A DNA stretch of 64,000 bases from an uncultured Clostridium sp. (GCA_902493795.1 CABUQZ010000007.1:4401-68400); one strand, 5' to 3'; numbered from the stretch's first letter, positions 26,142 through 64,000 are shown. The notes: a model not told the origin generated them from the letters alone. Numbers and translations are program-made.

Positions 26142-26486
26142 ATGTATCAAGAACAATTCAATTTATCTCCTAAAGATATTTTAGAAAAAGAATTTAAAAT
26201 AGACACAAGAGGGTATAGATTAAAAGAAGTAGATCAATATCTAGACCTTATAATTAGTGATTATGAACAATTCTTTAAAATATTGAAAGATAAGGATAAA
26301 GAAAAAGAGGAGTTACTTAATGAGATAATGTCTTTAAAGCAAGAAAACAGAAATTTGAAGACTAGTCTAGAGATTGCTAAATCAGCAGATGATGATGGTA
26401 ATGATTCAGGAAAGACAGTATCAAATGTTGATATTATGAAAAGATTATCTCAACTTGAAAAAATAGTTTACGGAAAAGATGAATAA
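26142..26486 (+). CDS. gpsB: cell-cycle protein GpsB (DivIVA-domain)
   Basis: FKIDTRGYRLKEVDQYLD DivIVA-like N-terminal domain followed by a coiled coil. rnpB follows, as in B. subtilis. Confidence 0.85.
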   Translation: MYQEQFNLSPKDILEKEFKIDTRGYRLKEVDQYLDLIISDYEQFFKILKDKDKEKEELLNEIMSLKQENRNLKTSLEIAKSADDDGNDSGKTVSNVDIMKRLSQLEKIVYGKDE

Positions 26487-26842
26487 TACTTAGGGCAAAC
26501 GCTATATATGAGTATATAGAGGAAAGTCCATGCTCACAGAGTCTGAAATGACTCTAGTGTTCGTGCTAAGGGAGAAAGTAACCTTAGGTAGCAAATTAGC
26601 TTTTGCTAACGGCGACGAATTAATCTAAGTCTTTGATATGATTATAGTAGTCATAAAGTGTCAAAGTGACGAATAAACTGGAAACAGTGGAAGTGGAACG
26701 CGATAAACCCCGCGAGTGAGAAACTCAAATATTGGTAGAGGAGCTCTAACAAAGGAATTTTAACAGAGTTAGGGACTAGGTAACTAGTAGATAAATGTTT
26801 GCCACCTAGTAATAGGTACAGAACATGGCTTATTAAGTATTA
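26487..26842 (+). ncRNA. rnpB: RNase P RNA, type B (Firmicutes)
   Basis: Universal blocks GAGGAAAGTCCATGCTC (5') and ACAGAACATGGCTTA (3'), plus AGTGGAACGCGATAAACCCCGCGAGTGAGAAACTCAAAT. P1 pairs TACTTA (26487-) with TAAGTA (-26839). Confidence 0.95.
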
Positions 26843-50984: not shown

Positions 50985-51016
50985 AAAAAGAACTAGTTAT
51001 TTAGTTCTATTTTTTT
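50983..51016. terminator. Bidirectional terminator between convergent genes
   Basis: AGAACTA-GTTATT-TAGTTCT flanked by A7 and T-rich runs. Confidence 0.65.
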
Positions 51017-51816
51017 AATGTAAACGTTTTAAATATTTTAAAATATTCACTATTATCATCAGGACCTTCAATACCAATGTAATGAGTATTGCCATCTTCT
51101 GCTTCAAAGCACCAAACATATAGCCATATTTTATCTTTCTCATAATATCCTGATACTTGATATGCATTATAATTTGATATTTGAATTCTTGCTCCTTGAA
51201 GATCTTTTACTCCTTCTTTACTTAGCTGCGCTGCAACTGCTTTAGCGTAAGTTTCAGCACCTACCTCACTAGTTGCCATAGCATCTAGAGTAATAATATA
51301 TTTAGCATCTTCACTAGAATATTGCAATCCACGAACAGCATTAACATCTTGAAATTTAACCCATTCTTCAGGTATTTCAACATAACCTAAAGTGTTGTTT
51401 CCAACCGTTTTAGTTGTTTTTTCTTCAACAGGTGGATTTTCTTTAACGTCATTATTATCTTTTCCATCACTATCGCTTGTATTAATAATAATTATAGTAA
51501 CAATAATTACTATAACAAATACAATAAAAGCAGCAATACCAATTAAAGCAGTTTTGCTAAGGTTAAATGGCGTCTTTTTCTTTTTATTGTTGTTTTGATA
51601 ATTATATCCATAATTTTGATTATACTGTGGATATTGATTATTATAGTATCCATTTTGGTTATAATACTGACCATTTTGATTGTAGTATTGGCCATTATTG
51701 TAGTATTGTCCGTTGTAATAACCATTTTGGTTGCTATACTGTCCATTATAGTATTGACCGTTTTGATAAGGATAATTATTTTGATTATTCTTGTTACGTC
51801 TTCCCACACACACCAC
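51007..51816 (-). CDS. single-pass membrane protein with a Q/N/Y-rich low-complexity cytoplasmic N-terminus
   Basis: (NGQYYN)-type repeats, TM (LIGIAAFIVFVIVIIVTIIII) and an external domain of about 150 aa. The GTG start overlaps its SD, so the true start may lie a few codons downstream. Confidence 0.55.
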   Translation of the reverse strand: MVCVGRRNKNNQNNYPYQNGQYYNGQYSNQNGYYNGQYYNNGQYYNQNGQYYNQNGYYNNQYPQYNQNYGYNYQNNNKKKKTPFNLSKTALIGIAAFIVFVIVIIVTIIIINTSDSDGKDNNDVKENPPVEEKTTKTVGNNTLGYVEIPEEWVKFQDVNAVRGLQYSSEDAKYIITLDAMATSEVGAETYAKAVAAQLSKEGVKDLQGARIQISNYNAYQVSGYYEKDKIWLYVWCFEAEDGNTHYIGIEGPDDNSEYFKIFKTFTLKK

Positions 51817-53163: not shown

Positions 53164-53192
53164 ATTGACATTTAGTTAATTCCATATTATGA
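53164..53192 (+). promoter_or_regulatory. sigma-A-type promoter
   Basis: TTGACA (53164-53169), 17-nt spacer, TATGAT. Confidence 0.5.
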
Positions 53193-53198
53193 TTAATG

Positions 53199-53303
53199 TG
53201 CATGATGATAAAACATTATGCGTTTCACTCTTACGGACTTAATGTGAGAGTGTATTCAACCAAAACCCCCTGAGCCGGTCCTTAATTGGGCCGGTATTTT
53301 TTT
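53199..53303 (+). ncRNA. candidate small RNA or leader (~105 nt) ending in a GC-rich intrinsic terminator
   Basis: Internal hairpin CACTCT-(15 nt)-AGAGTG. Terminator CCGGTCC-TTAATT-GGGCCGG followed by TATTTTTTT. No ORF. The locally GC-rich sequence stands out from its AT-rich surroundings. Confidence 0.4.
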
Positions 53304-53350
53304 GCCCCAATTTATAAGGGTTTGTAGGGGATAGAATCCGTGATTTTTAT

Positions 53351-53372
53351 TTTAGGTACGATTTAGGTACGA
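53351..53372 (+). repeat. Perfect tandem 11-mer TTTAGGTACGA x2
   Basis: Seen directly at the left edge of the island. Confidence 0.9.
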
Positions 53373-53453
53373 ATTTTCAATGTTTTTAAAGTCAAAACAA
53401 GGGTACTTTAATAAAAAATAGTATAATTATGATATAATTGTTGTGGTGATATA

Positions 53454-54230
53454 ATGCAAACTGAAAGAACTAAGGTTGATTGGTGCTTTAATAAAAAAGC
53501 TAAAGAGGTTGGATATTGGTATTATGTTAATGATTTGGTAACAAATATTTCTAAAAATGGAAACATTTATTCTTGCGATATAGATAAATATAATACTAGG
53601 GTTGAATTTTCCACTAACAGAAAAGAAGAAATTGATGACTTAGAGTGTAATTGTTCATTTTATGAAAATGAAGATAATTTTTGCCCACATGTTTATGCTT
53701 TAGTTTGCTATGCTTTTAAAGTACTTAAAAAATCAAGTGGATATAGTGTTAAATTATTAGAAAAGTATAAAAATATAAATATAAATAAAATCAAAAAAGA
53801 ATTTGATAATGGCAATATTGATTTAATGGATTTAGATATTTTAGGGTATAAATATGAAAGTTTGTTTCCTGATAGAAATAATGAACCGTTATTTGATAGA
53901 TTGGATGAATATATAGAGAGTATGCCAATGGAAGTGCTAGAAAAAGCTAAAAATCAAACTATTTTAGAAGGTGAAGATACAAGCATTTTAGACAAAGCTA
54001 TTAAAAATAAATTAGCGCAGCAAAAAAAATTAGAAGAACAAGAAAGACTAGAAAGAAAAAGAATGAGAAGAGCTATCTTTGCGGGATTTATAGATGGATT
54101 ATTTAATAGTAGTAAAGGTAGTAAACAAGAACAAATAAATATATATGAAAAAGATTATGAACCATATCAATTTGAAGAAGAAGAATTAGAAGAAGATGAT
54201 TATTATTATGAAGATGATAATGAAAAATAA
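53454..54230 (+). CDS. SWIM zinc-finger protein with a coiled-coil and acidic tail
   Basis: CNCSFYENEDNFCPH gives CxCx9CxH (nt 53646-53690). A K/E/R coiled-coil segment follows, and the protein ends EEEELEEDDYYYEDDNEK. Confidence 0.55.
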   Translation: MQTERTKVDWCFNKKAKEVGYWYYVNDLVTNISKNGNIYSCDIDKYNTRVEFSTNRKEEIDDLECNCSFYENEDNFCPHVYALVCYAFKVLKKSSGYSVKLLEKYKNININKIKKEFDNGNIDLMDLDILGYKYESLFPDRNNEPLFDRLDEYIESMPMEVLEKAKNQTILEGEDTSILDKAIKNKLAQQKKLEEQERLERKRMRRAIFAGFIDGLFNSSKGSKQEQINIYEKDYEPYQFEEEELEEDDYYYEDDNEK

Positions 54231-54284
54231 AATATGGTATAATTTTATTTTTTGTAGCATTATATAAAGAAATAAGGTGATTGT

Positions 54285-55226
54285 TTGAAGTCAAGTTGTA
54301 GATCATTAAAATTATCTATAGTATTAGGGGTATTTTTTATAATATCAACAATTATATTATCTATATTAAGTTTAAAATGTAGTAATGAAGTAATAGATAT
54401 TATATTAAATATTTCAATTGGGTTACTTGGAAGTACAATGGTGGCTTTATTGTTAAATATACCTGCGTATGATGTTTCAAAAAGGCAACTTTTAGAAAGA
54501 TTTTGGCACGAGAGTAGAAGGTTGATTTCAAGATTCAGCAAGATTGATTATTTATTTAATGAATATAATGAAGAAAATATAGTTAAATATATTAATGCAT
54601 TAAATAATAAAAAATGGACTGAGGTCTATAATCAATTAACCCCTGAAAATAAAATTGATTGTAAAGAAAAACAATACAAAAAACTTTTGGTAGATGAATA
54701 TATTTTAAATAATCCAGATTTAGAAAGTAAAATTTCAAAATCAGGATTAAAAACATTTGCTAATGAACAAGTGGATAAATATATAGAAAAATTCAGAAAA
54801 AAGGCTGAAATAGTCTTTAAACAATATATTAATTTAGCTAAAGAAAGCACAAAAGAAATGAATTTTATGTTGGGTGATATGCAATTTCTTTCTGGAAATA
54901 AACCTTATGAAAAAATTCATAAAAAAATGTATCAACCATTATTCGATATGCTTGATAAAATAAAAGAACAAAGTTATCATTTTAATTTATATTTAGAGGG
55001 TCATGGAAATGAAGCTGTATGTATAGAAAAAATTTTTGAATTACAAAAGCAATTGTTTAAATTAAAAATAGAAGAAAATGAAACTGTAAAAAATTATACT
55101 GTAATGGGAACTTTTAATGATAATATGTTGATAAATTTAGAAGAATTTAGAGCTGATATGTATAATATAGAACCTGAAAAACAAAATATACATCCTATAT
55201 TATTTAAAAGTCATAAAAAAAGATAA
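54285..55226 (+). CDS. 2-TM membrane protein with a ~240-aa helical cytoplasmic domain (candidate effector)
   Basis: TTG start after AAGGTGA. TMs are LSIVLGVFFIISTIILSILSL and ISIGLLGSTMVALLLNIPAY. Its stop abuts the integrase stop. Confidence 0.45.
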   Translation: MKSSCRSLKLSIVLGVFFIISTIILSILSLKCSNEVIDIILNISIGLLGSTMVALLLNIPAYDVSKRQLLERFWHESRRLISRFSKIDYLFNEYNEENIVKYINALNNKKWTEVYNQLTPENKIDCKEKQYKKLLVDEYILNNPDLESKISKSGLKTFANEQVDKYIEKFRKKAEIVFKQYINLAKESTKEMNFMLGDMQFLSGNKPYEKIHKKMYQPLFDMLDKIKEQSYHFNLYLEGHGNEAVCIEKIFELQKQLFKLKIEENETVKNYTVMGTFNDNMLINLEEFRADMYNIEPEKQNIHPILFKSHKKR

Positions 55227-56330
55227 CTATTCCAAGTTATCTATAATACTCACAACATTATCGAGGGCAGTACTGAACATATGAGAATATGTATTTAGTG
55301 TTTCCTCGATTTTTGTATGTCCTAAAAATTTGGCAACTAATGTAACATTAGCTCCATTGTTAATTAATAATGAAGCACATGAATGTCTAAAGTCATGTAA
55401 TCTTATTGATTTCAATCCAGCTTTGTTTGCTATCAAAGTTCTTCTATCATATATAGTGGTATCACTAATAGGTCTTGCGTCAGATACAACAAAGAAATCA
55501 TCGTTAAAGTTACAATATTCCTTTTTAGACTGCTCGTAGAGCATTTTAAGGTCGTTTAGAAGGACTTTTGTGATAGGAACAATGCGATAACTATCTTTTG
55601 TCTTTGTATCCGAAAATTCGAACTTCGTGCGGTTATTTAACTGGGTAATTTGTTTGTTAACAGATAATACCTTTTTATCAAAATAAATATCTTTCCAAGT
55701 TAAACCTTTTAATTCACCTTTACGTAGTCCACAATAATAAAATATTTCAAATACACATTTCCATCTAAGATCATCTTCACAAGAAATAAACTTCTTAAAC
55801 TCTTCGTAGTTATAGTAAGACATTTCTTTTCTTCTTTCGTTAGGATCTTGGAACTTTGTCATTTTATTATAAAAATTGTTAAAATTAAATCCATGCCATT
55901 TAACTCCAAAGTTAAGAATAGATCTAAGAAATTTATAAATATCATTTTTATATCGTAAAGATAAACCAGCTTTATTTATGTCTCTTTTCCATTGCTCAAA
56001 TTGCATAATGTTAAAATCTTTAATTTTTACGGGAAAGAAGCATTCAATATACTTTTCTTTATGATTATAACCACATAATGTAGTAGCTTTCATTATTTCA
56101 TCATTATGCATTCTAAATTCATCATATAGATCTTTAAACGTCATATTATTATCTTCAACCTTATCAGTAGAAGTAACCATAAACATTCTTTCAGCATCAA
56201 CAGCTTCTTTTTTAGTTGCAAACTTTTTTGATTTATATTGATCCGGTTTACCAAAAGAATCAGTATAATTTACTTTAAAATACCAACATCTACCATCTTT
56301 GGTAGCCTTTTTATCTTTATATATTGGCAC
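55227..56330 (-). CDS. int: tyrosine-type site-specific integrase
   Basis: C-terminal catalytic signature ..GLRKGE..(R), IRLHDFRHSCASLL (HxxR), LGHTKIEETLNTYSHM (H..Y). GTG start. 367 aa. Confidence 0.9.
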   Translation of the reverse strand: MPIYKDKKATKDGRCWYFKVNYTDSFGKPDQYKSKKFATKKEAVDAERMFMVTSTDKVEDNNMTFKDLYDEFRMHNDEIMKATTLCGYNHKEKYIECFFPVKIKDFNIMQFEQWKRDINKAGLSLRYKNDIYKFLRSILNFGVKWHGFNFNNFYNKMTKFQDPNERRKEMSYYNYEEFKKFISCEDDLRWKCVFEIFYYCGLRKGELKGLTWKDIYFDKKVLSVNKQITQLNNRTKFEFSDTKTKDSYRIVPITKVLLNDLKMLYEQSKKEYCNFNDDFFVVSDARPISDTTIYDRRTLIANKAGLKSIRLHDFRHSCASLLINNGANVTLVAKFLGHTKIEETLNTYSHMFSTALDNVVSIIDNLE

Positions 56331-56347
56331 AATTTACACGTCCTTTC

Positions 56348-56376
56348 TTGTGTAAATCCCCAATTAATGATATAAT
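56348..56376 (+). promoter_or_regulatory. extended -10 promoter facing away from int
   Basis: TTGTGT, 17-nt spacer, TGaTATAAT (56368-56376). Confidence 0.5.
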
Positions 56377-56382
56377 TATATA

Positions 56383-56486
56383 CGAGAAATCTCCAAAATT
56401 ATATTTATTATAATTATTAAAGTTTACCAGACTTTTTAATTAGGGATTTTTCATTTTGATCACTGTTCCAGCAGTGGTCTTTTTTT
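56383..56486 (+). ncRNA. candidate antisense sRNA (~100 nt) in the int-repressor intergenic region
   Basis: No ORF. It starts after the extended -10 promoter and ends at GATCACTG-TTCCAG-CAGTGGTC followed by T7. It is antisense to the int leader and carries the 20-mer TTATTAAAGTTTACCAGACT. Confidence 0.5.
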
Positions 56487-57138
56487 ATATATATTTTCTT
56501 TTAACTTGTACTACAATACCAATAATTCTTAAGGACTCAAGTTCTAGAGTTCCTTTTAAATAAGTTTTAGGTTGAATGTTATCACTCATATTAAGTGGCA
56601 TTACCATTATTCCATCATTAATATGTATTAACTTTCTTATTTTTGCATAATCACTATCTTTTTCTAAAACACAATAGAAACCATCTTTATCCATTTTTTT
56701 GCATTCTCTAATAATTAAGCAATCATCTTTATGAAATTCAGGATCCATAGAATTATCATTCATTATTAATCCAAAATAACTTTGATGATTCTTTATCCAT
56801 TCTGGAGGTATTAATTCTTCATCTATTTTAAATGCTTCGTTTTTTAAACACCAAACAGAATCTAAAAATAATTTTGAAAAAACATCAACTTTAACTACAT
56901 CATCATATAAAGCATCATCATCTTCATCAGTTATTTCTTCAATTAAATCAGATTTTTTAATATTAAAATAATCAGCAATTAAATTAATTTTTTCAACACG
57001 TGGGAATATTCTACCTGTGCACCAATCTGTTAGGGTAGTGTATGGAATATTTAAACCTTCAGCAAGTTGTCTTCTTGAAACTTTTCTTTCTTTCATAATA
57101 GCTTTAAGGTTATTTATAAATATATCTCTACTATTCAT
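56485..57138 (-). CDS. CI/LexA-like repressor (XRE HTH + S24 peptidase domain)
   Basis: HTH VSRRQLAEGLNIPYTTLTDWCTG. The S24-like C-terminal domain has DNSMDPEF (Ser) and a downstream Lys (AKIRKL). Confidence 0.8.
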   Translation of the reverse strand: MNSRDIFINNLKAIMKERKVSRRQLAEGLNIPYTTLTDWCTGRIFPRVEKINLIADYFNIKKSDLIEEITDEDDDALYDDVVKVDVFSKLFLDSVWCLKNEAFKIDEELIPPEWIKNHQSYFGLIMNDNSMDPEFHKDDCLIIRECKKMDKDGFYCVLEKDSDYAKIRKLIHINDGIMVMPLNMSDNIQPKTYLKGTLELESLRIIGIVVQVKRKYI

Positions 57139-57171
57139 ATTGTACCTCCTCTAATATAAGTATAACTTAAT

Positions 57172-57210
57172 TTACGAAAAGTTACAAGCAAAATTATGAA
57201 ACTTTCGTAA
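57172..57210. promoter_or_regulatory. operator-like inverted repeat in the repressor/cro divergent region
   Basis: TTACGAAAAGT-(18 nt)-ACTTTCGTAA. Confidence 0.5.
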
Positions 57211-57269
57211 TTTCTATTTACAATTAAAAATTTTTGTAATATTATTAAAATAGGAAGGAGGTTAAAATA

Positions 57270-57548
57270 GTGCAGGCTACGTTAAGAGCAATTCGTGTGC
57301 ACTTAAATATGAGTATTGATGATGCTGCTAAGAAAATAGGTATACCAACAAGTAGATTAAGAGCAATAGAACAACACAAGACAATGCCTAGAATTCCTTT
57401 AGTAAAAAAGATGATGGAAGTATATGATGTAGATATTGATAGTATCTTATTTAATAATAAGGAAGATATAATAAAATTGCATCAATCAAGAACACGAAGA
57501 AAATTTAGATGTAGTAGTAAAGAAGTAAATGAAGTATGTAGTAAATAG
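57270..57548 (+). CDS. Cro-like HTH protein
   Basis: GTG start 8 nt after AGGAGG. XRE-type HTH (LNMSIDDAAKKIGIPTSRLRAIE). Divergent from the repressor. An upstream promoter reads TTTACA-17-TATTAT (57217-57245). Confidence 0.65.
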   Translation: MQATLRAIRVHLNMSIDDAAKKIGIPTSRLRAIEQHKTMPRIPLVKKMMEVYDVDIDSILFNNKEDIIKLHQSRTRRKFRCSSKEVNEVCSK

Positions 57549-57593
57549 AATTTTATATCATGCAGTATCGATATATTTTTTTATAATTCTAAG

Positions 57594-57610
57594 TTACGAA
57601 AATATCGTAA
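57594..57610. promoter_or_regulatory. second operator-like palindrome
   Basis: TTACGA-AAATA-TCGTAA, with the same half-site as 57172-57210. Confidence 0.5.
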
Positions 57611-57658
57611 TTGAAGAGTCTGGTAAACTTTAATAAGAAAATAGAAGGAGATTTAAAA

Positions 57659-57922
57659 ATGAAAAGCAAAACAATAATTCAAGCTGATGAGATGCTGGAG
57701 ATACTAAATAAGCAGTGGGCTACAATACAAGATATAATGAAAATAGGTGCGTTAGGTAGAAATAAAGCTAGAAACATAAAAAATGAAATAGAAAGAAATA
57801 TAATAGATCAAGGATTAAAACTTCCTAATAATTTAGTTCCAATGGAAAAGGTAATTGAATACTTTAAAATTAATCTGGATTTTTTAGTAACAATTAATAA
57901 ATCAAAAAATGGCGAAATATAA
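57659..57922 (+). CDS. 87-aa protein, possible excisionase or DNA-binding accessory protein
   Basis: ATG 57659 follows AAGGAG. Its position (after cro, before the replication genes) and small basic helical sequence are consistent with Xis-like proteins. No motif was recognised. Confidence 0.35.
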   Translation: MKSKTIIQADEMLEILNKQWATIQDIMKIGALGRNKARNIKNEIERNIIDQGLKLPNNLVPMEKVIEYFKINLDFLVTINKSKNGEI

Positions 57923-58721
57923 TAAAGAAAAATATTATTATTTTATGTTAAAATCTAATTTCTTTGATAGTGATGTAATAAGATATCTACAACAAAAACA
58001 AAATGGATATGAAATGATAATCTTATATTTTAAATTAATATTTAAAGCTATAAATAAAGAAGGCAAATTAATTAAAAAAATAGGTAAGAAAAATATACCA
58101 TATACAATAGAAGAATTATCAATTGAAACAGGACATTCTAAAGAACTAATAGAAGATAGTATTAATTACTTTTTAGACACAGAAATGATTGAGAAAAAAG
58201 GTAATACATATTACATAGAAGATGCATTAGTATTAACGAATCAAACTACTGTAGGTGCAATGGAAATGAGAGAATATCGAGCTAAAAATAGTAGGGATAA
58301 ATGTAAGAAAAATTGTAAGCAAAAAGGTAAGACAAATATAGATATAAATAATAATAAATTAGAACTTATAACTAATAAAAAAGAATTAATAAAAAAAGAT
58401 GATAGTAAATATCAAGAAATAATAGATTATTTTAATTTTAAAACAAACTCAAAATATGTATTAATAGATGAATATAAAAAATTAATAGATAATATTTTAA
58501 ATAAATATACAACAGATGATATAAAAATAGTAATAGATAAAAAAACTTCAGAATGGATTAATAATCATAAAATGAGATCATTCCTTAGACCAGAAACATT
58601 ATTAGGTCCTAAATTTGAAAGATATTTACATCAAAAAATTGAACCAAAAACATTAAAAGATATTACAATGGCAGATATTCAAAAAGCAAAAGCTATAAGG
58701 GATGGTAAAGCAAATGGATAA
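57909..58721 (+). CDS. phage replisome organizer / DnaD-like replication protein
   Basis: N-terminal YYYFMLKSNFFDSDVIRYL..GYEMIILYFKL matches the replisome organizer N-domain. C-terminal YQEIIDYFNFKTNSKY..IKIVIDKKTSEW..FLRPETLLGPKFERYL matches the conserved phage C-terminal domain. Confidence 0.7.
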   Translation: MAKYNKEKYYYFMLKSNFFDSDVIRYLQQKQNGYEMIILYFKLIFKAINKEGKLIKKIGKKNIPYTIEELSIETGHSKELIEDSINYFLDTEMIEKKGNTYYIEDALVLTNQTTVGAMEMREYRAKNSRDKCKKNCKQKGKTNIDINNNKLELITNKKELIKKDDSKYQEIIDYFNFKTNSKYVLIDEYKKLIDNILNKYTTDDIKIVIDKKTSEWINNHKMRSFLRPETLLGPKFERYLHQKIEPKTLKDITMADIQKAKAIRDGKANG

Positions 58722-59145
58722 ATTGGATTTTGCAGAGGGAATGAAAATGCTTTCTTCTTGTTATCATAAAGATTTAAATAATGATGATTTTGTTATATGG
58801 TATGAAATGTTAAAAGATATCAATCCAGATGTATTTAAAAAGACAATAATAGAAATATGTAAAGAAAAATCATTTATGCCTACAGTACACGATATATTAG
58901 ATAAATCAAAGAATGTTAATAATAGTTATTATTTATCTATAATTGATAAAATGTATGATGATGGTTATTTTAAAAAGGGATATCAGGAATTAACAGATGA
59001 ACATGCAAATAGAAATTATGATAAAGCAATAAGATGGATAGAAAAGGGAATAATACCACAATTCTTATCAGATGACATGAATGAGTATATAAAATCTAAA
59101 ACTCAAATTAATAATAAAGAAACTTTAAGGATAGAATCATGTTAA
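58702..59145 (+). CDS. hypothetical replication-module protein (possibly a helicase-loader-like protein)
   Basis: It overlaps the upstream stop (alternative start ATG 58714). KEKSFMPTVHDIL is reminiscent of G39P-type loaders. This is a weak call. Confidence 0.3.
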   Translation: MVKQMDKLDFAEGMKMLSSCYHKDLNNDDFVIWYEMLKDINPDVFKKTIIEICKEKSFMPTVHDILDKSKNVNNSYYLSIIDKMYDDGYFKKGYQELTDEHANRNYDKAIRWIEKGIIPQFLSDDMNEYIKSKTQINNKETLRIESC

Positions 59146-59498
59146 GAACTTGTAACGTATGTGGTGGAATCCATCAAGAAGATAAGATGTGTAAAAGAAA
59201 ATATATAAGTAAAAAGAATAGTAAAGCTAATTCATTTAGAAATACTAATGCTTGGATAACAAAAAGAGAACAAATAAAAAGAAGAGATAAGTATCTCTGT
59301 CAAGTTTGTTTAAAGAACAAACTATATACATATAACAATTTACAAGTTCATCATATAATTCCAATAAATATTGACTACTCAAAAAGATTAGATAGTGATA
59401 ATTTAATAACATTATGCACATATCATCATAATCAAGCTGAAAAAGGATTAATAACTAGAGAACAATTATTAGAAACAATAGATCCCCCCGGGGAGTAA
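59139..59498 (+). CDS. HNH endonuclease
   Basis: CQVCLKN..LQVHHIIPI..DNLITLCTYHHNQAE, preceded by an N-terminal Cys pair (CNVCGG). Confidence 0.85.
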   Translation: MLRTCNVCGGIHQEDKMCKRKYISKKNSKANSFRNTNAWITKREQIKRRDKYLCQVCLKNKLYTYNNLQVHHIIPINIDYSKRLDSDNLITLCTYHHNQAEKGLITREQLLETIDPPGE

Positions 59499-59614
59499 AC
59501 AATTAAAAATAATATTTTTTTCTACACCCACAGCCCACCTAAATTCACACAATTATAAATTTTCCGTGAGTTTTTTGGAAAATAAAACAAATAAAAGAGT
59601 ATTAGTACAAACAC

Positions 59615-59938
59615 CTAATACTCAATTTTTTTAATTTCTAAAGAATTTTCATTAGTGATAATTAAAGCATATTTAACTCTTAATAATTTAAAAACCTCAG
59701 CTTTTACTTTTTCTTCATTTTCACCAAACATATTAATTAAATCTTTAGCAGAATTATAATGTTGTAAAAAAGAACCTTCATACATAGCATTTCTATAATA
59801 TGAATTTGCAATATAATAAGCAATGACTTCAGGCATAATATAGCTTTCAATATACTCATCATAATTATCTAAAAAGGGTTTTAATATAGCATTAAATTCT
59901 TCATCACTAATATCAGCATTAGTAGTCTTTCTAATCAT
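59615..59938 (-). CDS. hypothetical protein, 107 aa
   Basis: ATG 59938 follows GGAGGTG. It is the only minus-strand gene between hnh and hsdM. No motif was recognised. Confidence 0.45.
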   Translation of the reverse strand: MIRKTTNADISDEEFNAILKPFLDNYDEYIESYIMPEVIAYYIANSYYRNAMYEGSFLQHYNSAKDLINMFGENEEKVKAEVFKLLRVKYALIITNENSLEIKKIEY

Positions 59939-60105
59939 AGACACCTCCAATTTGTTGTATTAATCACTTAAATATTAAAAAATTACAAGTTATATTTAAC
60001 AAATTTTAAATTTTATTGGCTTAATTAGGCGTCAAAAGTCAATTTTTGTCAATTTTTATGTTATAATTATAAATGGAGAAAACTTTGTAATATGGAGGTA
60101 AAAAT

Positions 60106-61602
60106 ATGAATGAAACTGAATTAAAGAAGTTAGAAGATAGATTATGGTCTGCAGCAGATAAAATGAGAGGTGCAGTGTCAGTATCAGATTATAAATTTAT
60201 AGTATTAGGATTAATATTTTTAAAATATATTTCTGATTCATTTGAAGAAAGATATAAAGAGTTAGTAGAAGAAGGATATGGATTAGAAGAAGAAAAAGAT
60301 AGTTATACAGAAAAGAATATTTTTTATGTTCCTAAAAACGCTAGATGGAGTTATTTAGAGGAACATTCTAAGGATGATAATATTGGAGAAATAATTGATG
60401 ATGCGTTGACTTTAATCGAAAAAGATAATACTTCATTAAAAAATGTATTACCGAAAGATTATAATAGCCCAACAATGAGAAATGTTAACCTTGGAGAATT
60501 AATAGATTTATTTACAAATATTAAAGTTGGAACAAAAGATGCAATTGAAAAAGATATATTAGGAAGAATATATGAGTATTTCTTAGGACAATTTGCTAAG
60601 AATGAATTACAAAAGGGTGGAGAATTCTATACACCAGCATGTTTAGTTAGAACAATGGTTGAATGTATTGAACCATATCAAGGAAGAGTTTATGATCCTG
60701 CATGTGGTTCTGGTGGAATGTTTATTCAATCATTGAAATTTGTTCAAGAACATCAAGGAAATATTAATAATATCAGTATTTATGGGCAAGAAAAAAACCC
60801 AACAACTTGGAGATTGGCAAAAATGAATTTAGCTATTCGTTCTTTAAATGGAGATTTAGGAAAATATGCTGCAGATACATTTACTGAAGACTTACATAAA
60901 GATTTGAAAGCGGATTATATATTGGCTAATCCGCCATTCAATTTGGAATGGGATAGAGATAAAGTTGAAAAAGATCCAAGATGGAGATATGGTCTTGCTC
61001 CAAAAAATAATGCAAATTATGCGTGGCTTCAACACATGATATCCAAATTATCTCAAAATGGTAAAATGGCTTGTATACTTGCGAATGGTTCTTTGGCTGC
61101 TGGTTATGATGAAGCTAAAATAAGAGAGAGATTAATAGAAAATGATTTAATAGATTGTGTTATTGCAATGCCTACAAATTTATTTTATACAGTCACAGTG
61201 CCATGCTCTATATGGATAATTAATAGAAATAAAAAGCAAAAAGGGAAAACTCTATTTATAAATGCGCATAGTCTTGGCGAAATGGTTACAAGAAGACTAA
61301 GAGAATTAACTGATGAAGACATAAAGAAAATCTCAACTACATATCATAATTATGAGAATAATAATAACTATGAAAATATAAAAGGTTTTTGTTCATCTGC
61401 GACTATAGAAGAAATTAAAGGGAAAGGTTTTGCTTTAACACCAGGAAGGTATGTTGGAGTTGATGATACCGGGACAGATGATGTACCTTTTGAAGAAAAA
61501 ATGCAAAGAATTACAAGTGAACTATCTGAACAGTTCGAATTGTCTCATAAACTTGAAAATGAAATTAAAAATAATTTAAAAGCTATCGGTTATGATATAT
61601 AA
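60106..61602 (+). CDS. hsdM: type I restriction-modification system, methyltransferase subunit
   Basis: HsdM N-terminal domain (LWSAADKMRG..YKFIVLGLIFLKYISD). SAM motif I (VYDPACGSGGMF) and motif IV (LANPPFN). Confidence 0.95.
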   Translation: MNETELKKLEDRLWSAADKMRGAVSVSDYKFIVLGLIFLKYISDSFEERYKELVEEGYGLEEEKDSYTEKNIFYVPKNARWSYLEEHSKDDNIGEIIDDALTLIEKDNTSLKNVLPKDYNSPTMRNVNLGELIDLFTNIKVGTKDAIEKDILGRIYEYFLGQFAKNELQKGGEFYTPACLVRTMVECIEPYQGRVYDPACGSGGMFIQSLKFVQEHQGNINNISIYGQEKNPTTWRLAKMNLAIRSLNGDLGKYAADTFTEDLHKDLKADYILANPPFNLEWDRDKVEKDPRWRYGLAPKNNANYAWLQHMISKLSQNGKMACILANGSLAAGYDEAKIRERLIENDLIDCVIAMPTNLFYTVTVPCSIWIINRNKKQKGKTLFINAHSLGEMVTRRLRELTDEDIKKISTTYHNYENNNNYENIKGFCSSATIEEIKGKGFALTPGRYVGVDDTGTDDVPFEEKMQRITSELSEQFELSHKLENEIKNNLKAIGYDI

Positions 61603-61627
61603 ATTTTTGAATAATGATAGGAGTGAT

Positions 61628-62791
61628 ATGATGGAATATACAACATATAAAATATCTGAAATTGGAAATGTAATTACAGGAAAAACACCGCCAACAAAGA
61701 TTAAGGAGTTTTTTTCTGAAACACCAGATAAATATTTATTCATTACTCCAAGAGATATGAATATTGAATCAAAATATATATATTGTACAGAAAGATATTT
61801 AACTGATTATGTCACTGATAAATTTAAAAACATTATTATTGACGAAAAAAGCATATGCGTTAGTTGTATAGGAACTGTTGGGAAAGTATTTATTCCTTCA
61901 CAGTTGTCAATTACTAATCAACAGATTAACTCAATTACAAATATTAAGAGTTTTTGTGATTACAATTATCTATATTATTATTTGAAATGCAATTATAAAA
62001 AGATACAAGCAGTTGCAGGCGGAACTACTATGCCTATTGTAAATAAATCAAGTTTTGAAGATATAGAGGTTGAATTGCCAGATGTTATATATCAAAAAAA
62101 GGTTAGTAAAATTTTAGGAACAATTGATAGTAAAATAAAAATTAACAATGATTTAAATGCTAATATATATAATATGATGATAAATTTATTTAATAATTAT
62201 ATAGATAATTTGGAAACATATGATGAATCAACATTATCAGAAATAGCAAGTTATAAAAATGGATTGGCTATGCAAAAATTTAGACCTATTAATGAAGAAG
62301 GATTACCTGTAATAAAAATAAAGGAAATGAATTCAGGCATTTCATCTGATACAGAAAGATGTAGAACTGATATACCAAGTGACGTAACAATAAATGATGG
62401 TGATGTATTATTTGCGTGGTCAGGAACATTGTGTATGAACATTTGGTGTGGTGGTAAAGCCGGACTTAATCAACATATATTTAAGGTTACATCTGAAAAA
62501 TATCCTAAGTGGTTTTATTATTTTTGGACTTTAAAATATTTAAATAGTTTTATTGAAATTGCAGCAGGGAAAGCTACCACAATGGGCCATATAAAAAGAG
62601 AAGAATTAGATAAAGCAATCGTAAAAATTCCATCAAATGAGAGTATTAAAAAAATGGGAAATATATTTGAGCCATTATTTAAAGAATACATTAATAATAA
62701 TATTGAAAATAGACAGTTAACTGAATTAAGGGATAGTTTGTTACCGAAACTTATTAATGGTGAAATTGACTTAGATAATATTGAGGTATAA
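61628..62791 (+). CDS. hsdS: type I restriction-modification system, specificity subunit
   Basis: Two target-recognition domains separated by conserved helical spacers (..KKVSKILGTIDSKIKINNDLN.. and ..QLTELRDSLLPKLINGEIDL). ATG 61628 follows AGGAG. Confidence 0.9.
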   Translation: MMEYTTYKISEIGNVITGKTPPTKIKEFFSETPDKYLFITPRDMNIESKYIYCTERYLTDYVTDKFKNIIIDEKSICVSCIGTVGKVFIPSQLSITNQQINSITNIKSFCDYNYLYYYLKCNYKKIQAVAGGTTMPIVNKSSFEDIEVELPDVIYQKKVSKILGTIDSKIKINNDLNANIYNMMINLFNNYIDNLETYDESTLSEIASYKNGLAMQKFRPINEEGLPVIKIKEMNSGISSDTERCRTDIPSDVTINDGDVLFAWSGTLCMNIWCGGKAGLNQHIFKVTSEKYPKWFYYFWTLKYLNSFIEIAAGKATTMGHIKREELDKAIVKIPSNESIKKMGNIFEPLFKEYINNNIENRQLTELRDSLLPKLINGEIDLDNIEV

Positions 62792-62793
62792 AG

Positions 62794-63027
62794 ATGGATA
62801 AAAAAATATTACATATTGATTTTAATGAAAAACTACAAGAACAAGATACGGAATATCAAACATATGGATGTAGGCAAAAGAATCCCGATATCTGCTCCAG
62901 TAATGGAATGGAAAATATTTGCGCATTTGCTAGTAAAGATTGTATATGCAAGAAACCATCACGAGCATGGAAAAAACAATTTTTAAAACTTAAAGAAATT
63001 GGTTCTAAAAAAATAGGAAGTGATTAA
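62794..63027 (+). CDS. 77-aa Cys-rich protein nested between hsdS and hsdR
   Basis: It starts 2 nt after the hsdS stop and ends 1 nt before the hsdR ATG. It has six Cys (C-x9-C-x9-C-x6-C-x-C pattern) and a basic tail. Confidence 0.5.
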   Translation: MDKKILHIDFNEKLQEQDTEYQTYGCRQKNPDICSSNGMENICAFASKDCICKKPSRAWKKQFLKLKEIGSKKIGSD

Positions 63028-63028
63028 T

Positions 63029-64000
63029 ATGTTTACAGAAGAACAATTAGAAGATATGACAATGTCGTTGTTAGATAAGTTAAATTATGAATGTAAAAAT
63101 GGTTATAATATTGAAAGAGACTATCATAGTGTTTTTTATGATGATACATTATTTGATGATATAGCTAATATCAATAGAGATTTTACTGATGAACAAATTA
63201 ATGAAGCTATAAAAACTATTAAAAATTTAACTTATAATAACGTTGTAGAAGATAATAAAGAATTTACTAAATATTTATTACAAGGGGTACCGGTAGAAGT
63301 TAAAACTAATACTGGATATCAATATAAAAATGTTAAATTGATTGATTTTGATAATGTAGAAAACAATCACTTCCAAGCTATTAATCAATTTACTATTATT
63401 GAGTTTGAACAAAAAAGACCAGATATAATTATATTTATTAATAGTATTCCTTTAGTAGTAATAGAATTAAAAACTGCTACTAATGAAGATGTTAAGTTAG
63501 AAGATGCGTATCTTCAATTACATAAATATAGAGAAATATCTATACCATCGTTATTTAGATATAATCAATTTTTGGTTATAAGTGATGGTGTAACTGCTAA
63601 AGCAGGAACTATTACAAGTGCATATAGTAGATTTAGTGATTGGAAAAAAGTTGAAGATACAGATGTAGTAACAGAAAATATGCCAACACATGAAACATTA
63701 TTTAATGGAATGCTTAGAAAAGATAGATTGTTAGATTTAATTGGTAATTACATTTTATATAGTAATGATTCTAAAATTTTAGCACAATACCATCAATATT
63801 TTGGTGTTAAGAAAGCAATTAAATCTACTGTGACAACAGGTGCAAAAACAGGTAAAGCAGGAATCGTTTGGCATACTCAAGGTTCTGGTAAATCATTTAG
63901 TATGGTGTTCTATGCTGGTAATATGATTAAAATGTTATTAAATCCTACAATTTTAGTTGTAACAGATAGAAATGATTTAGATAATCAATTATATGAAACT
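63029..64000 (+). CDS. hsdR: type I restriction enzyme, R subunit (N-terminal 324 codons; continues beyond the window)
   Basis: My own translation gives MFTEEQLEDM..RPDIIIFINSIPLVVIELK (nuclease/PD-(D/E)xK region) ..GIVWHTQGSGKSFSMVF (helicase motif I) ..VVTDRNDLDNQ. The frame is open to the window end. Confidence 0.9.
   Translation, partial: MFTEEQLEDMTMSLLDKLNYECKNGYNIERDYHSVFYDDTLFDDIANINRDFTDEQINEAIKTIKNLTYNNVVEDNKEFTKYLLQGVPVEVKTNTGYQYKNVKLIDFDNVENNHFQAINQFTIIEFEQKRPDIIIFINSIPLVVIELKTATNEDVKLEDAYLQLHKYREISIPSLFRYNQFLVISDGVTAKAGTITSAYSRFSDWKKVEDTDVVTENMPTHETLFNGMLRKDRLLDLIGNYILYSNDSKILAQYHQYFGVKKAIKSTVTTGAKTGKAGIVWHTQGSGKSFSMVFYAGNMIKMLLNPTILVVTDRNDLDNQLYET

Follow-up and report, generated by a model that had tools for sequence, protein, structure and literature searches.

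The 64,000-nt stretch of DNA from an uncultured Clostridium sp. analyzed here (GCA_902493795.1 CABUQZ010000007.1:4401-68400; hereafter the window) ends in a region that raises the question of what kind of mobile element can combine an integrase, a repressor, a replication module and defence genes without any gene for a virion. A first reading, made from the sequence alone (the original prediction), had placed a phage-satellite-like integrative island at 53304-64000, resembling phage-inducible chromosomal islands (PICIs) or degraded prophages, and could not exclude a complete prophage, as the right boundary lay outside the window. Here, we propose that this island is a cos-type phage satellite that would work much like SaPIbov5, a Staphylococcus aureus pathogenicity island (SaPI). 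We put the probability of this reading at roughly 0.65, based on comparisons with conspecific contigs, complete phages and related islands from other species.

The extent of the element could be defined by looking up the 77-aa protein encoded between hsdS and hsdR, which returned a 104-kb metagenome contig (L001). This contig is identical to the window over all 11,207 shared bases, reaches 6.1 kb beyond the window end and thus provided the right end of the island. Past the window end, it contains the remainder of hsdR, a gene for a 572-aa ABC-type ATPase, a 117-aa membrane open reading frame (ORF), the right attachment site (attR) and then non-island DNA. Only the ATPase gene and the 117-aa ORF therefore occupy the interval between hsdR and attR, where the original prediction had proposed to look for terminase or capsid genes. 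The direct repeat that bounds the island is 17 nt long (CAACCAAAACCCCCTGA), and the core-to-core distance, measured on the window and L001 together, amounts to 15,216 bp. The proposal of an integrative island is thus upheld, but its left limit at 53304 has to be moved outward to the attL core (Table 1), and the island continues for 4.5 kb past the window.

Conspecific contigs, obtained via a look-up of a 220-aa protein encoded in the left flank, revealed that the insertion is polymorphic within the species. In two of them (L012 and L013), the left flank, a single core copy and the right flank are joined exactly, and the flanks of L013 are 100% identical to those of L001 over 480 and 1637 nt. 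In another sample, the island is present in a copy (L004) that shows 100% identity across 10.3 kb, and in other conspecific contigs the site is occupied by different elements. An attR thus exists beyond hsdR, and the region is not conserved in all relatives. With such precise bounds and such polymorphism, neither of the two outcomes that would have spoken against the original prediction applies, namely an ordinary prophage with a full set of morphogenesis genes downstream, or a region without attR that all relatives share. A 23-nt repeat (TTTTAGGTACGATTTAGGTACGA) was also considered as the att core and was rejected, because the empty-site contigs put the crossover further out, at the 17-nt core; the 23-mer is therefore assigned to arm-type sites within the island. 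The 11-nt repeat that makes up these sites occurs in four copies, against 0.16 expected by chance, arranged as one tandem pair inside each end, and sister elements have their own tandem arm pairs at the same offset from the core. Together with the Arm-DNA-bind_4 domain of the integrase, these repeats fit candidate arm-type sites that would flank the core in attP.

Open reading frame listing and Pfam and PHROG searches recovered every gene of the original prediction in the order and orientation given there. Among all 16 ORFs of the attL-attR interval, we found no head, tail, portal, terminase, holin or lysin families. The lack of capsid, tail and lysis genes noted before thus holds for the full interval and extends to terminase, and since no such gene is present up to attR, the island is not a complete prophage. 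All of its ORFs are intact. Regulation is provided by a divergent pair of cI- and cro-like genes, accompanied by operator-like palindromes (TTACGAAA..TCGTAA) at 57173-57210 and 57594-57610, and the Peptidase_S24 domain of the repressor suggests SOS-type, RecA-stimulated self-cleavage. The small ORF downstream of cro, orf103, has no family match in Pfam or PHROG, and no profile supports its earlier label as Xis-like. Within the replisome organiser gene lie three candidate iterons (AAAAAGGTAAGAnAAATATA, 58073-58340), and neither primase nor helicase domains were found among the island proteins.

Table 1. Features of the island and its attachment site. Positions refer to the window unless the contig L001 is named.
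Feature	Position	Strand	Assignment and remarks
Target locus (attB side), small promoter-to-terminator unit	53165-53303	+	Near-consensus promoter TTGACA-17-TATGAT
attL core CAACCAAAACCCCCTGA	53257-53273	+	Identical copy at attR; empty-site contigs
Candidate arm-type integrase sites, TTTAGGTACGA x2	53351-53372	+	Tandem 11-nt repeats, 77 nt inside attL
Cargo gene 1, 258 aa	53454-54230	+	CxC...CxH motif, weak SWIM match (E 0.15); no family
Cargo gene 2, 313 aa	54285-55226	+	Hydrophobic N-terminus; no family
Tyrosine integrase (int), arm-binding N-terminal domain	55227-56330	-	PF00589 (E 1e-27), PF14657 (Arm-DNA-bind_4), phrog_1
CI-like repressor (cI), helix-turn-helix (HTH) and Peptidase_S24 (LexA-type self-cleaving domain)	56485-57138	-	Pfam/PHROG
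Cro-like HTH_3 regulator (cro)	57270-57548	+	Divergent from cI
orf103, small early gene, 103 aa	57611-57922	+	Conserved in islands and related phages
Replisome organiser, DnaD-like (Phage_rep_org_N and Phg_2220_C)	57909-58721	+	Pfam/PHROG
orf147, 147 aa	58702-59145	+	Weak helicase-loader PHROG match; conserved in islands and phages
HNH endonuclease, packaging-type, 119 aa	59139-59498	+	Pfam/PHROG; optional across the island family
cos-like element, about 105 nt, non-coding	59484-59590	+	Conserved in phages and islands; alignment with c5 end
Hairpin GAGTATTAG..CTAATACTC, then T-run	59596-59632	.	Conserved; between cos-like element and orf111; terminator-like
orf111, 111 aa, probably 107 aa from start 59938	59615-59950	-	Island-exclusive hallmark
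Variable cargo hotspot	60075-64000 and beyond window	+	Here type I restriction-modification
hsdM	60106-61602	+	HsdM_N and N6_Mtase
hsdS	61592-62791	+	Methylase_S x2 (two target-recognition domains)
77-aa Cys-rich ORF	62794-63027	+	Between hsdS and hsdR, conserved with the cassette
hsdR, 1007 aa	from 63029, off window (324 codons inside)	+	HSDR_N, ResIII/SWI2_SNF2, T1R_D3, T1RH_C
572-aa ABC ATPase, OLD/AriA/PtuA/GajA/retron class	L001 13374-15092 (outside window)		Defence-model matches
Second, identical pair of candidate arm-type sites	L001 15563-15584		About 96 nt inside attR
attR core, identical to attL	L001 15680-15696 = window-equivalent 68473-68489		Repeat match; about 4.5 kb past window

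The backbone of the island has close counterparts in complete phages. Relatives of its integrase in IMG/VR (38-52% identity) are encoded on contigs of 30-35 kb that also contain homologues of cI, cro, orf103, the replisome organiser, orf147 and the HNH gene in the order of the island, and the span from int to HNH measures 2.8 kb in the island versus ~7.6 kb in the phages. In the latter, the HNH gene is followed by genes for a ParB-domain methyltransferase, phrog_1569, a 120-aa protein that is probably the small terminase, the large terminase subunit (TerL), portal, protease, major head protein and major tail protein. The related contigs are complete HK97-like temperate siphophages. Two of these phages (L014 and L015) share the att core of the island, which adjoins their integrase gene. 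An IMG/VR search with the replisome organiser as the query returned no relatives. Another set of phages (L017-L022), with integrases 41-46% identical, inserts away from the site of the island, targeting the 3' terminus of a gene that ends in ...CPCGSGKKYKNCCGK and encodes a SecA-like C-terminus, and keeps the same AAATAAAGG box and TTAGATAC arm repeats.

The key feature shared between the island and these phages is a non-coding element downstream of the HNH gene. Its first part overlaps the final 15 nt of the HNH reading frame, and it consists of a C-run, an AT-rich spacer and the segments TACACCCACAGCCCACCT, CACACAATT and CGTGAGTTTTTTGGAAAA. The element was present in six out of six distinct phage loci with an HNH gene that had been found via integrase similarity. 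When we searched IMG/VR with a 21-nt pattern drawn from it, 16 contigs were returned, and in every one the start of the methyltransferase gene follows the element. Over a 61-nt core, island and phage sequences are 87-90% identical, a value that is inflated by the pattern-based selection and comes to ~80% without the 21 pattern positions, and the adjoining HNH DNA is 66-71% identical. The ribosome-binding site of the gene that comes next in the phages marks the exact end of their homology with the island, and apart from the spacer that holds the element, the related phages have no sizeable non-coding gap close to their packaging genes.

Comparison with cultured phages links this element to packaging. 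The closest cultured-phage homologues of the island HNH protein are encoded by the final gene at the right end of the cos phages Ld3, c5 and LL-Ku of Lactobacillus delbrueckii, and additional homologues occur in S. aureus and Paenibacillus phages. The gene order in Ld3 and c5 is endolysin, HNH, the physical genome ends, ParB nuclease, further genes, a 121-aa protein, TerL and portal, and bases 1-11 of c5 (AAACACCCGAA) bear the annotation 'cos site' in its record. Joining the right end of c5 to its left end yields CTCCCCCCCATG, 36 nt, AAACACCCGAACC...ACACAATTTATTTTTTCGCATGGTTTTTTGGAAAAAGG, to which the island corresponds block for block with ATCCCCCCGGGG, 30 nt, TACACCCACAGCCCACC...CACACAATTATAAATTTTCCGTGAGTTTTTTGGAAAAT. 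The element downstream of HNH is thus most likely a cos packaging site. From homology and position, the cleavage region of the island is predicted at ~59521-59535, and the cohesive ends of the related phages are expected within the TACACCC...ACAGCCCACC block. Two other considerations were discarded: an RNA hairpin within the element, formed by TTTTCC...GGAAAA pairing, was dropped as the pairing is not preserved in the phage copies, and the ends of IMG/VR contigs could not be used as cos ends, as the stored loci are pieces that do not end at contig ends. The hairpin between the element and orf111 is not flagged by a consensus terminator scan, having few G-C pairs and a 9-nt loop.

The same element could in principle have a regulatory role, such as that of a late promoter or an operator, in an island that moves without particles, for example by excision and natural transformation. 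Its location would agree with such a role, as the late operon of the phages is preceded by no other sizeable spacer and a late promoter is expected there as well. The island is also equipped with an SOS-type repressor and replication genes of its own, and satellites of Streptococcus thermophilus have been reported to move via natural competence (PMC13376191). We nevertheless regard particle-free transfer as unlikely, given that the alignment with the annotated cohesive-end region of c5 includes the physical genome end bases, and that a promoter at this position would drive nothing obvious in the islands, where the hairpin and a convergent gene follow. Moreover, identity among these phages amounts to 87-100% for the putative small and large terminase subunits, in line with strong conservation of the site that they recognise, and the island contains no relaxase or oriT-type gene.

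To delimit the family, we surveyed bacterial genomes, one per species, with the 21-nt pattern and obtained 26 loci. Nearly all are metagenome-assembled genomes of 'Bacilli bacterium' or Clostridia from goat, sheep, deer, rabbit and human guts; a closed chromosome of 1.31 Mb is also among them. Of these loci, 18 show the island layout, with orf111 present and neither the ParB-domain methyltransferase nor TerL; five are prophages, in which the element is followed by methyltransferase, TerL and portal genes, and the type of the remaining three is unclear. Within these islands, int, cI, cro, orf103, the replisome organiser, orf147 and an optional HNH gene precede cos, the hairpin, orf111 on the opposite strand and a set of variable genes, which are frequently unrelated type I systems. 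Identity to the window in the 18 island loci ranges from 38 to 82% for the integrase, from 27 to 68% for the replisome organiser (77% for a 30-aa remnant in L058) and from 58 to 94% for orf111. The family proteins are so divergent from those of the window that the compact layout is taken to be old. Seven members without HNH still keep the cos element. A fully bounded member from another species (L073) has the same gene order between CCCCCTGAAGAGAGC repeats 15,901 bp apart and the same architecture of box and arms; its type I system differs from that of the window, and it likewise encodes an AAA_15/AAA_21 ATPase.

The hallmark of the family, orf111, comprises 356 clusters at 90% identity, all of them unnamed. 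It was absent from 50,697 phage records and from every phage locus fetched, searches against PDB profiles, Pfam, PHROG and PADLOC yielded nothing credible, and its AlphaFold2 model was too poor for use (mean predicted local distance difference test score, pLDDT, of 50). We did not find the island family described in the literature searched, which is not proof of novelty.

These data also bear on whether the island might be the remnant of a defective prophage that lost its late genes, gained defence genes and is now immobile or decaying. Such an origin would explain why the backbone from int through HNH has homologues in the same order in complete phages and why the integrase and att system is common to both. 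Moreover, two family members, L070 and L071, are visibly decayed: they have lost the core from int to the replisome organiser and kept cos (in L070 only its 3' end), orf111 and defence genes, so decay also occurs in the family. A decayed integrase remnant even adjoins attR. As an account of the island, however, this seems quite improbable to us. The compact layout is found again in 18 species-representative genomes, the proteins of which drop to 27-60% identity, and such recurrence in divergent genomes points to long-term maintenance rather than to independent deletions. Decay would also leave unexplained the intact ORFs of the island, the island-specific orf111 that was not found in phages, the polymorphism of insertion and empty site on 100%-identical flanks, and the persistence of a non-coding cos element where HNH has been lost.

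The site into which the satellite has inserted appears to be a gene in its own right. The integration core forms the C-rich 3' end (tail CAACCAAAACCCCCUGA) of a small unit that starts at a near-consensus promoter and ends at a terminator (53274-53295) contributed by the island, and every element found at this site carries its own terminator hairpin directly after the core. In homologous units of two other species, two hairpins upstream of the tail are kept via compensatory changes and the C-rich tail is invariant. An Rfam scan matched the unit to no family, and it looks like an unannotated small RNA gene. A tRNA or tmRNA as the target was rejected, as ARAGORN finds none in the window and Rfam no family at the att site.

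Other occupants of the site in the same species (loci L005-L011) comprise two further islands and a mobilisable element of the integrase/Mob_Pre type that carries methyltransferases and GmrSD; they bring their own tandem arm repeats, and tandem arrays of elements are also present. The 17-nt site is an integration hotspot, as is evident from these other elements and from a decayed integrase relic. This relic of an older element lies in the right flank of the 'empty site' (L001 15700-16100, window-equivalent 68490-68900), with tandem AGATACCAA arm-like repeats and a 42-codon fragment that resembles a tyrosine recombinase C-terminus. Further to the right (L001 16412-16954), a 177-aa gene is made up of an internally duplicated segment of ~285 nt in tandem, the copies of which share 74-92% identity.

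Crowding at the hotspot allows for another scenario, in which packaging would start in situ at the cos site of a neighbouring prophage and run into an island in tandem, with no need for excision or replication by the island itself. The use of the island's att core by the phages L014 and L015, the tandem arrays and an IMG/VR contig (3300009779_000003) with an island-like segment beside a prophage are all compatible with such mobilisation in cis. Yet the intact integrase, repressor switch and replication module would then be superfluous, the window contains no adjacent prophage, and the empty-site right flank directly follows attR, so that we rate this scenario as very remote.

Returning to the island as a satellite, its cargo is concentrated in two places. 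A small slot with two genes lies between attL and int, and a larger, exchangeable slot starts at ~60075, just past the 5' end of orf111, where the similarity of the close relatives L045 and L068 to the window stops. In the window, the latter holds a type I restriction-modification system that is complete, with all three genes intact and the full domain set; the defence cargo of the original prediction, hsdM-hsdS-(77-aa ORF)-hsdR, is thereby borne out. In L071 and L072, hsdR shares 94.7% nucleotide identity with the window and hsdM 84%; hsdS has been swapped for a different one, and an unrelated 200-aa ORF replaces the 77-aa ORF. The 572-aa ATPase encoded next to the restriction system matches AriA and AriAB models, with NsnB, OLD, PtuA and GajA models scoring about as well. 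No DUF4435 (AriB) or Toprim match was found even at E <= 1, and no HNH partner was detected. As no effector domain or partner was recognised, the ATPase was not placed in PARIS or any other named system. A type I system immediately followed by an AAA_15/AAA_21 ATPase occurs in two islands (L001 13374-15092; L073 2084-3778), with restriction systems of different subfamilies. This arrangement suggests a functional pairing, in which the ATPase possibly forms a second line of defence.

How does the island compare with known satellites? Judged by published PICI criteria (Fillol-Salom 2018, PMC6092414) and core components (de Sousa 2023, PMC10085698), it resembles PICIs in its integrase and flanking att repeats with an observed empty site, its lack of phage structural and lysis genes, its exclusive gene family (orf111) and its size, which is close to the criterion of ~12-15 kb, also in the sister island L073 (15.9 kb). 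In contrast to PICIs, it has no Pri-Rep and relies on a DnaD-like replisome organiser and a loader-like ORF, none of its ORFs matches TerS or capsid-morphogenesis proteins, and its att core, a kind of site that prophages never occupy in PICIs, is also used by the phages L014 and L015 and other mobile elements. As for regulation, for which PICIs use a master regulator of the Stl, AlpA or MerR type with helper-dependent induction, the island has a divergent cI/cro pair, and the Peptidase_S24 domain of its repressor suggests SOS self-cleavage. Because it departs from several PICI criteria and has an SOS-type repressor, we file it as a phage satellite and not as a PICI. Of the earlier PICI-type assignment, the satellite part is thus retained, based on the cos-like site and the multi-species family, and the PICI part is reduced to a functional analogy.

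The cos-type SaPIs and PICIs are closer in their organisation. Cos-type SaPIs carry the cos site of the helper phage and lack terS (PMC5052747), and satellites commonly carry defence genes, also between att and int (PMC10085698; PMC9122126). Like SaPIbov5, SaPIbov4 and EcCICFT073, our element is an integrase-bounded island of ~15 kb with regulation and replication modules and without terS or virion genes (PMC5052747, PMC6092414), in which cargo lies near the ends and a putative copy of the cos site of HNH-dependent or lambda-like cos helpers is present; the element that follows HNH would serve as this helper cos site. Differences from this group are, besides the DnaD-like replication module, the S24 repressor and the att site shared with phages, an HNH gene of its own, the hallmark orf111 and a host from an uncultured low-GC gut Bacilli lineage, and, compared with SaPIbov5-like islands, the absence of Ccm, the HK97 capsid-protein homologue that redirects capsid size, as no major-head-protein match was found in the island. 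P4-like satellites likewise have a cos site for the helper terminase and an exchangeable defence hotspot, for which PARIS and restriction systems have been reported (PMC9122126). They differ from the island, which has no sequence homology to them, no primase, Sid, Psu or Delta, and a Gram-positive-type phage backbone; its ATPase matches AriA/AriAB of PARIS among others, without a detectable DUF4435/Toprim effector of the AriB type. Finally, with siphophages of the HNH-cos-ParB-TerS-TerL order (c5, Ld3 and IMG/VR L014-L043), the island shares the int-HNH homologues, cos element and att architecture, but everything from the methyltransferase onward (terminase, portal, head, tail and lysis) is missing, the early region is compressed, and orf111 and defence cargo are added.

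Based on these comparisons, we propose the following cycle. DNA damage or a helper-encoded signal would inactivate CI, upon which the island would be excised and replicated to concatemers from its own origin, probably inside the replisome organiser gene at the three candidate iterons. The terminase of a co-resident or infecting helper, together with a phage- or island-encoded HNH protein, would then cut the island cos, and the helper would pack island DNA into phage heads. Two island copies per head are plausible, because the island is about half the length of the helper genome (30-35 kb in the contigs and 30-32 kb in c5 and Ld3). The cargo would guard the host, and hence the island, from other phages.

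Several points weigh against this model. Excision, replication and encapsidation by a helper are steps that we infer from the sequence, the genome itself yielded no helper phage, and no capsid-size or helper-interference gene was recognised among the island ORFs. The S24 repressor suggests SOS induction over the helper-specific derepression that is typical of PICIs, and part of the family is decaying. The assignment as cos draws on where the element lies and on a single phage with an annotated homologous end, the core identity is raised by the way in which the loci were selected, and the spacer may hold a late promoter or regulatory site.

A more specific version of the model, which we offer only tentatively, is that these islands form an undescribed satellite family of uncultured low-GC gut Bacilli, of which the island in the window would be the first to be recognised. 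Such satellites would derive from the early region of HNH-dependent cos phages, would respond directly to SOS induction via their own S24 repressor, and would be packaged by the helper terminase as cos-bounded multimers of units about half the helper genome, without a capsid-remodelling gene; the 107-aa orf111 product encoded next to cos would act as a novel type of factor for helper interference or packaging redirection. With the same reservation, the family would define an exchange slot for defence genes, and its attachment site would be a new, C-rich small RNA gene.

The remainder of the window has ~25% G+C and includes a CoatF gene and a class B RNase P RNA (26486-26837, 276.6 bits), the latter in support of the window being of Firmicutes/Bacilli origin. 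On the minus strand at 51007-51816, it encodes a 269-aa protein without a Pfam family match, in which an N-terminal low-complexity region rich in Asn, Gln and Tyr (NGQYYN repeats) is followed by a membrane helix.

Most work on phage satellites has dealt with staphylococci, enterobacteria and vibrios. According to survey predictions, many satellite families are still to be discovered (PMC10085698), and our analysis delimits what would be a whole family of them from sequence alone, in gut bacteria that have never been cultured. For this family, it identifies candidate helper phages, a putative packaging signal, an attachment site and a cargo slot, and it thereby outlines, in concrete terms, how restriction and abortive-infection-type defences may pass between gut Bacilli.

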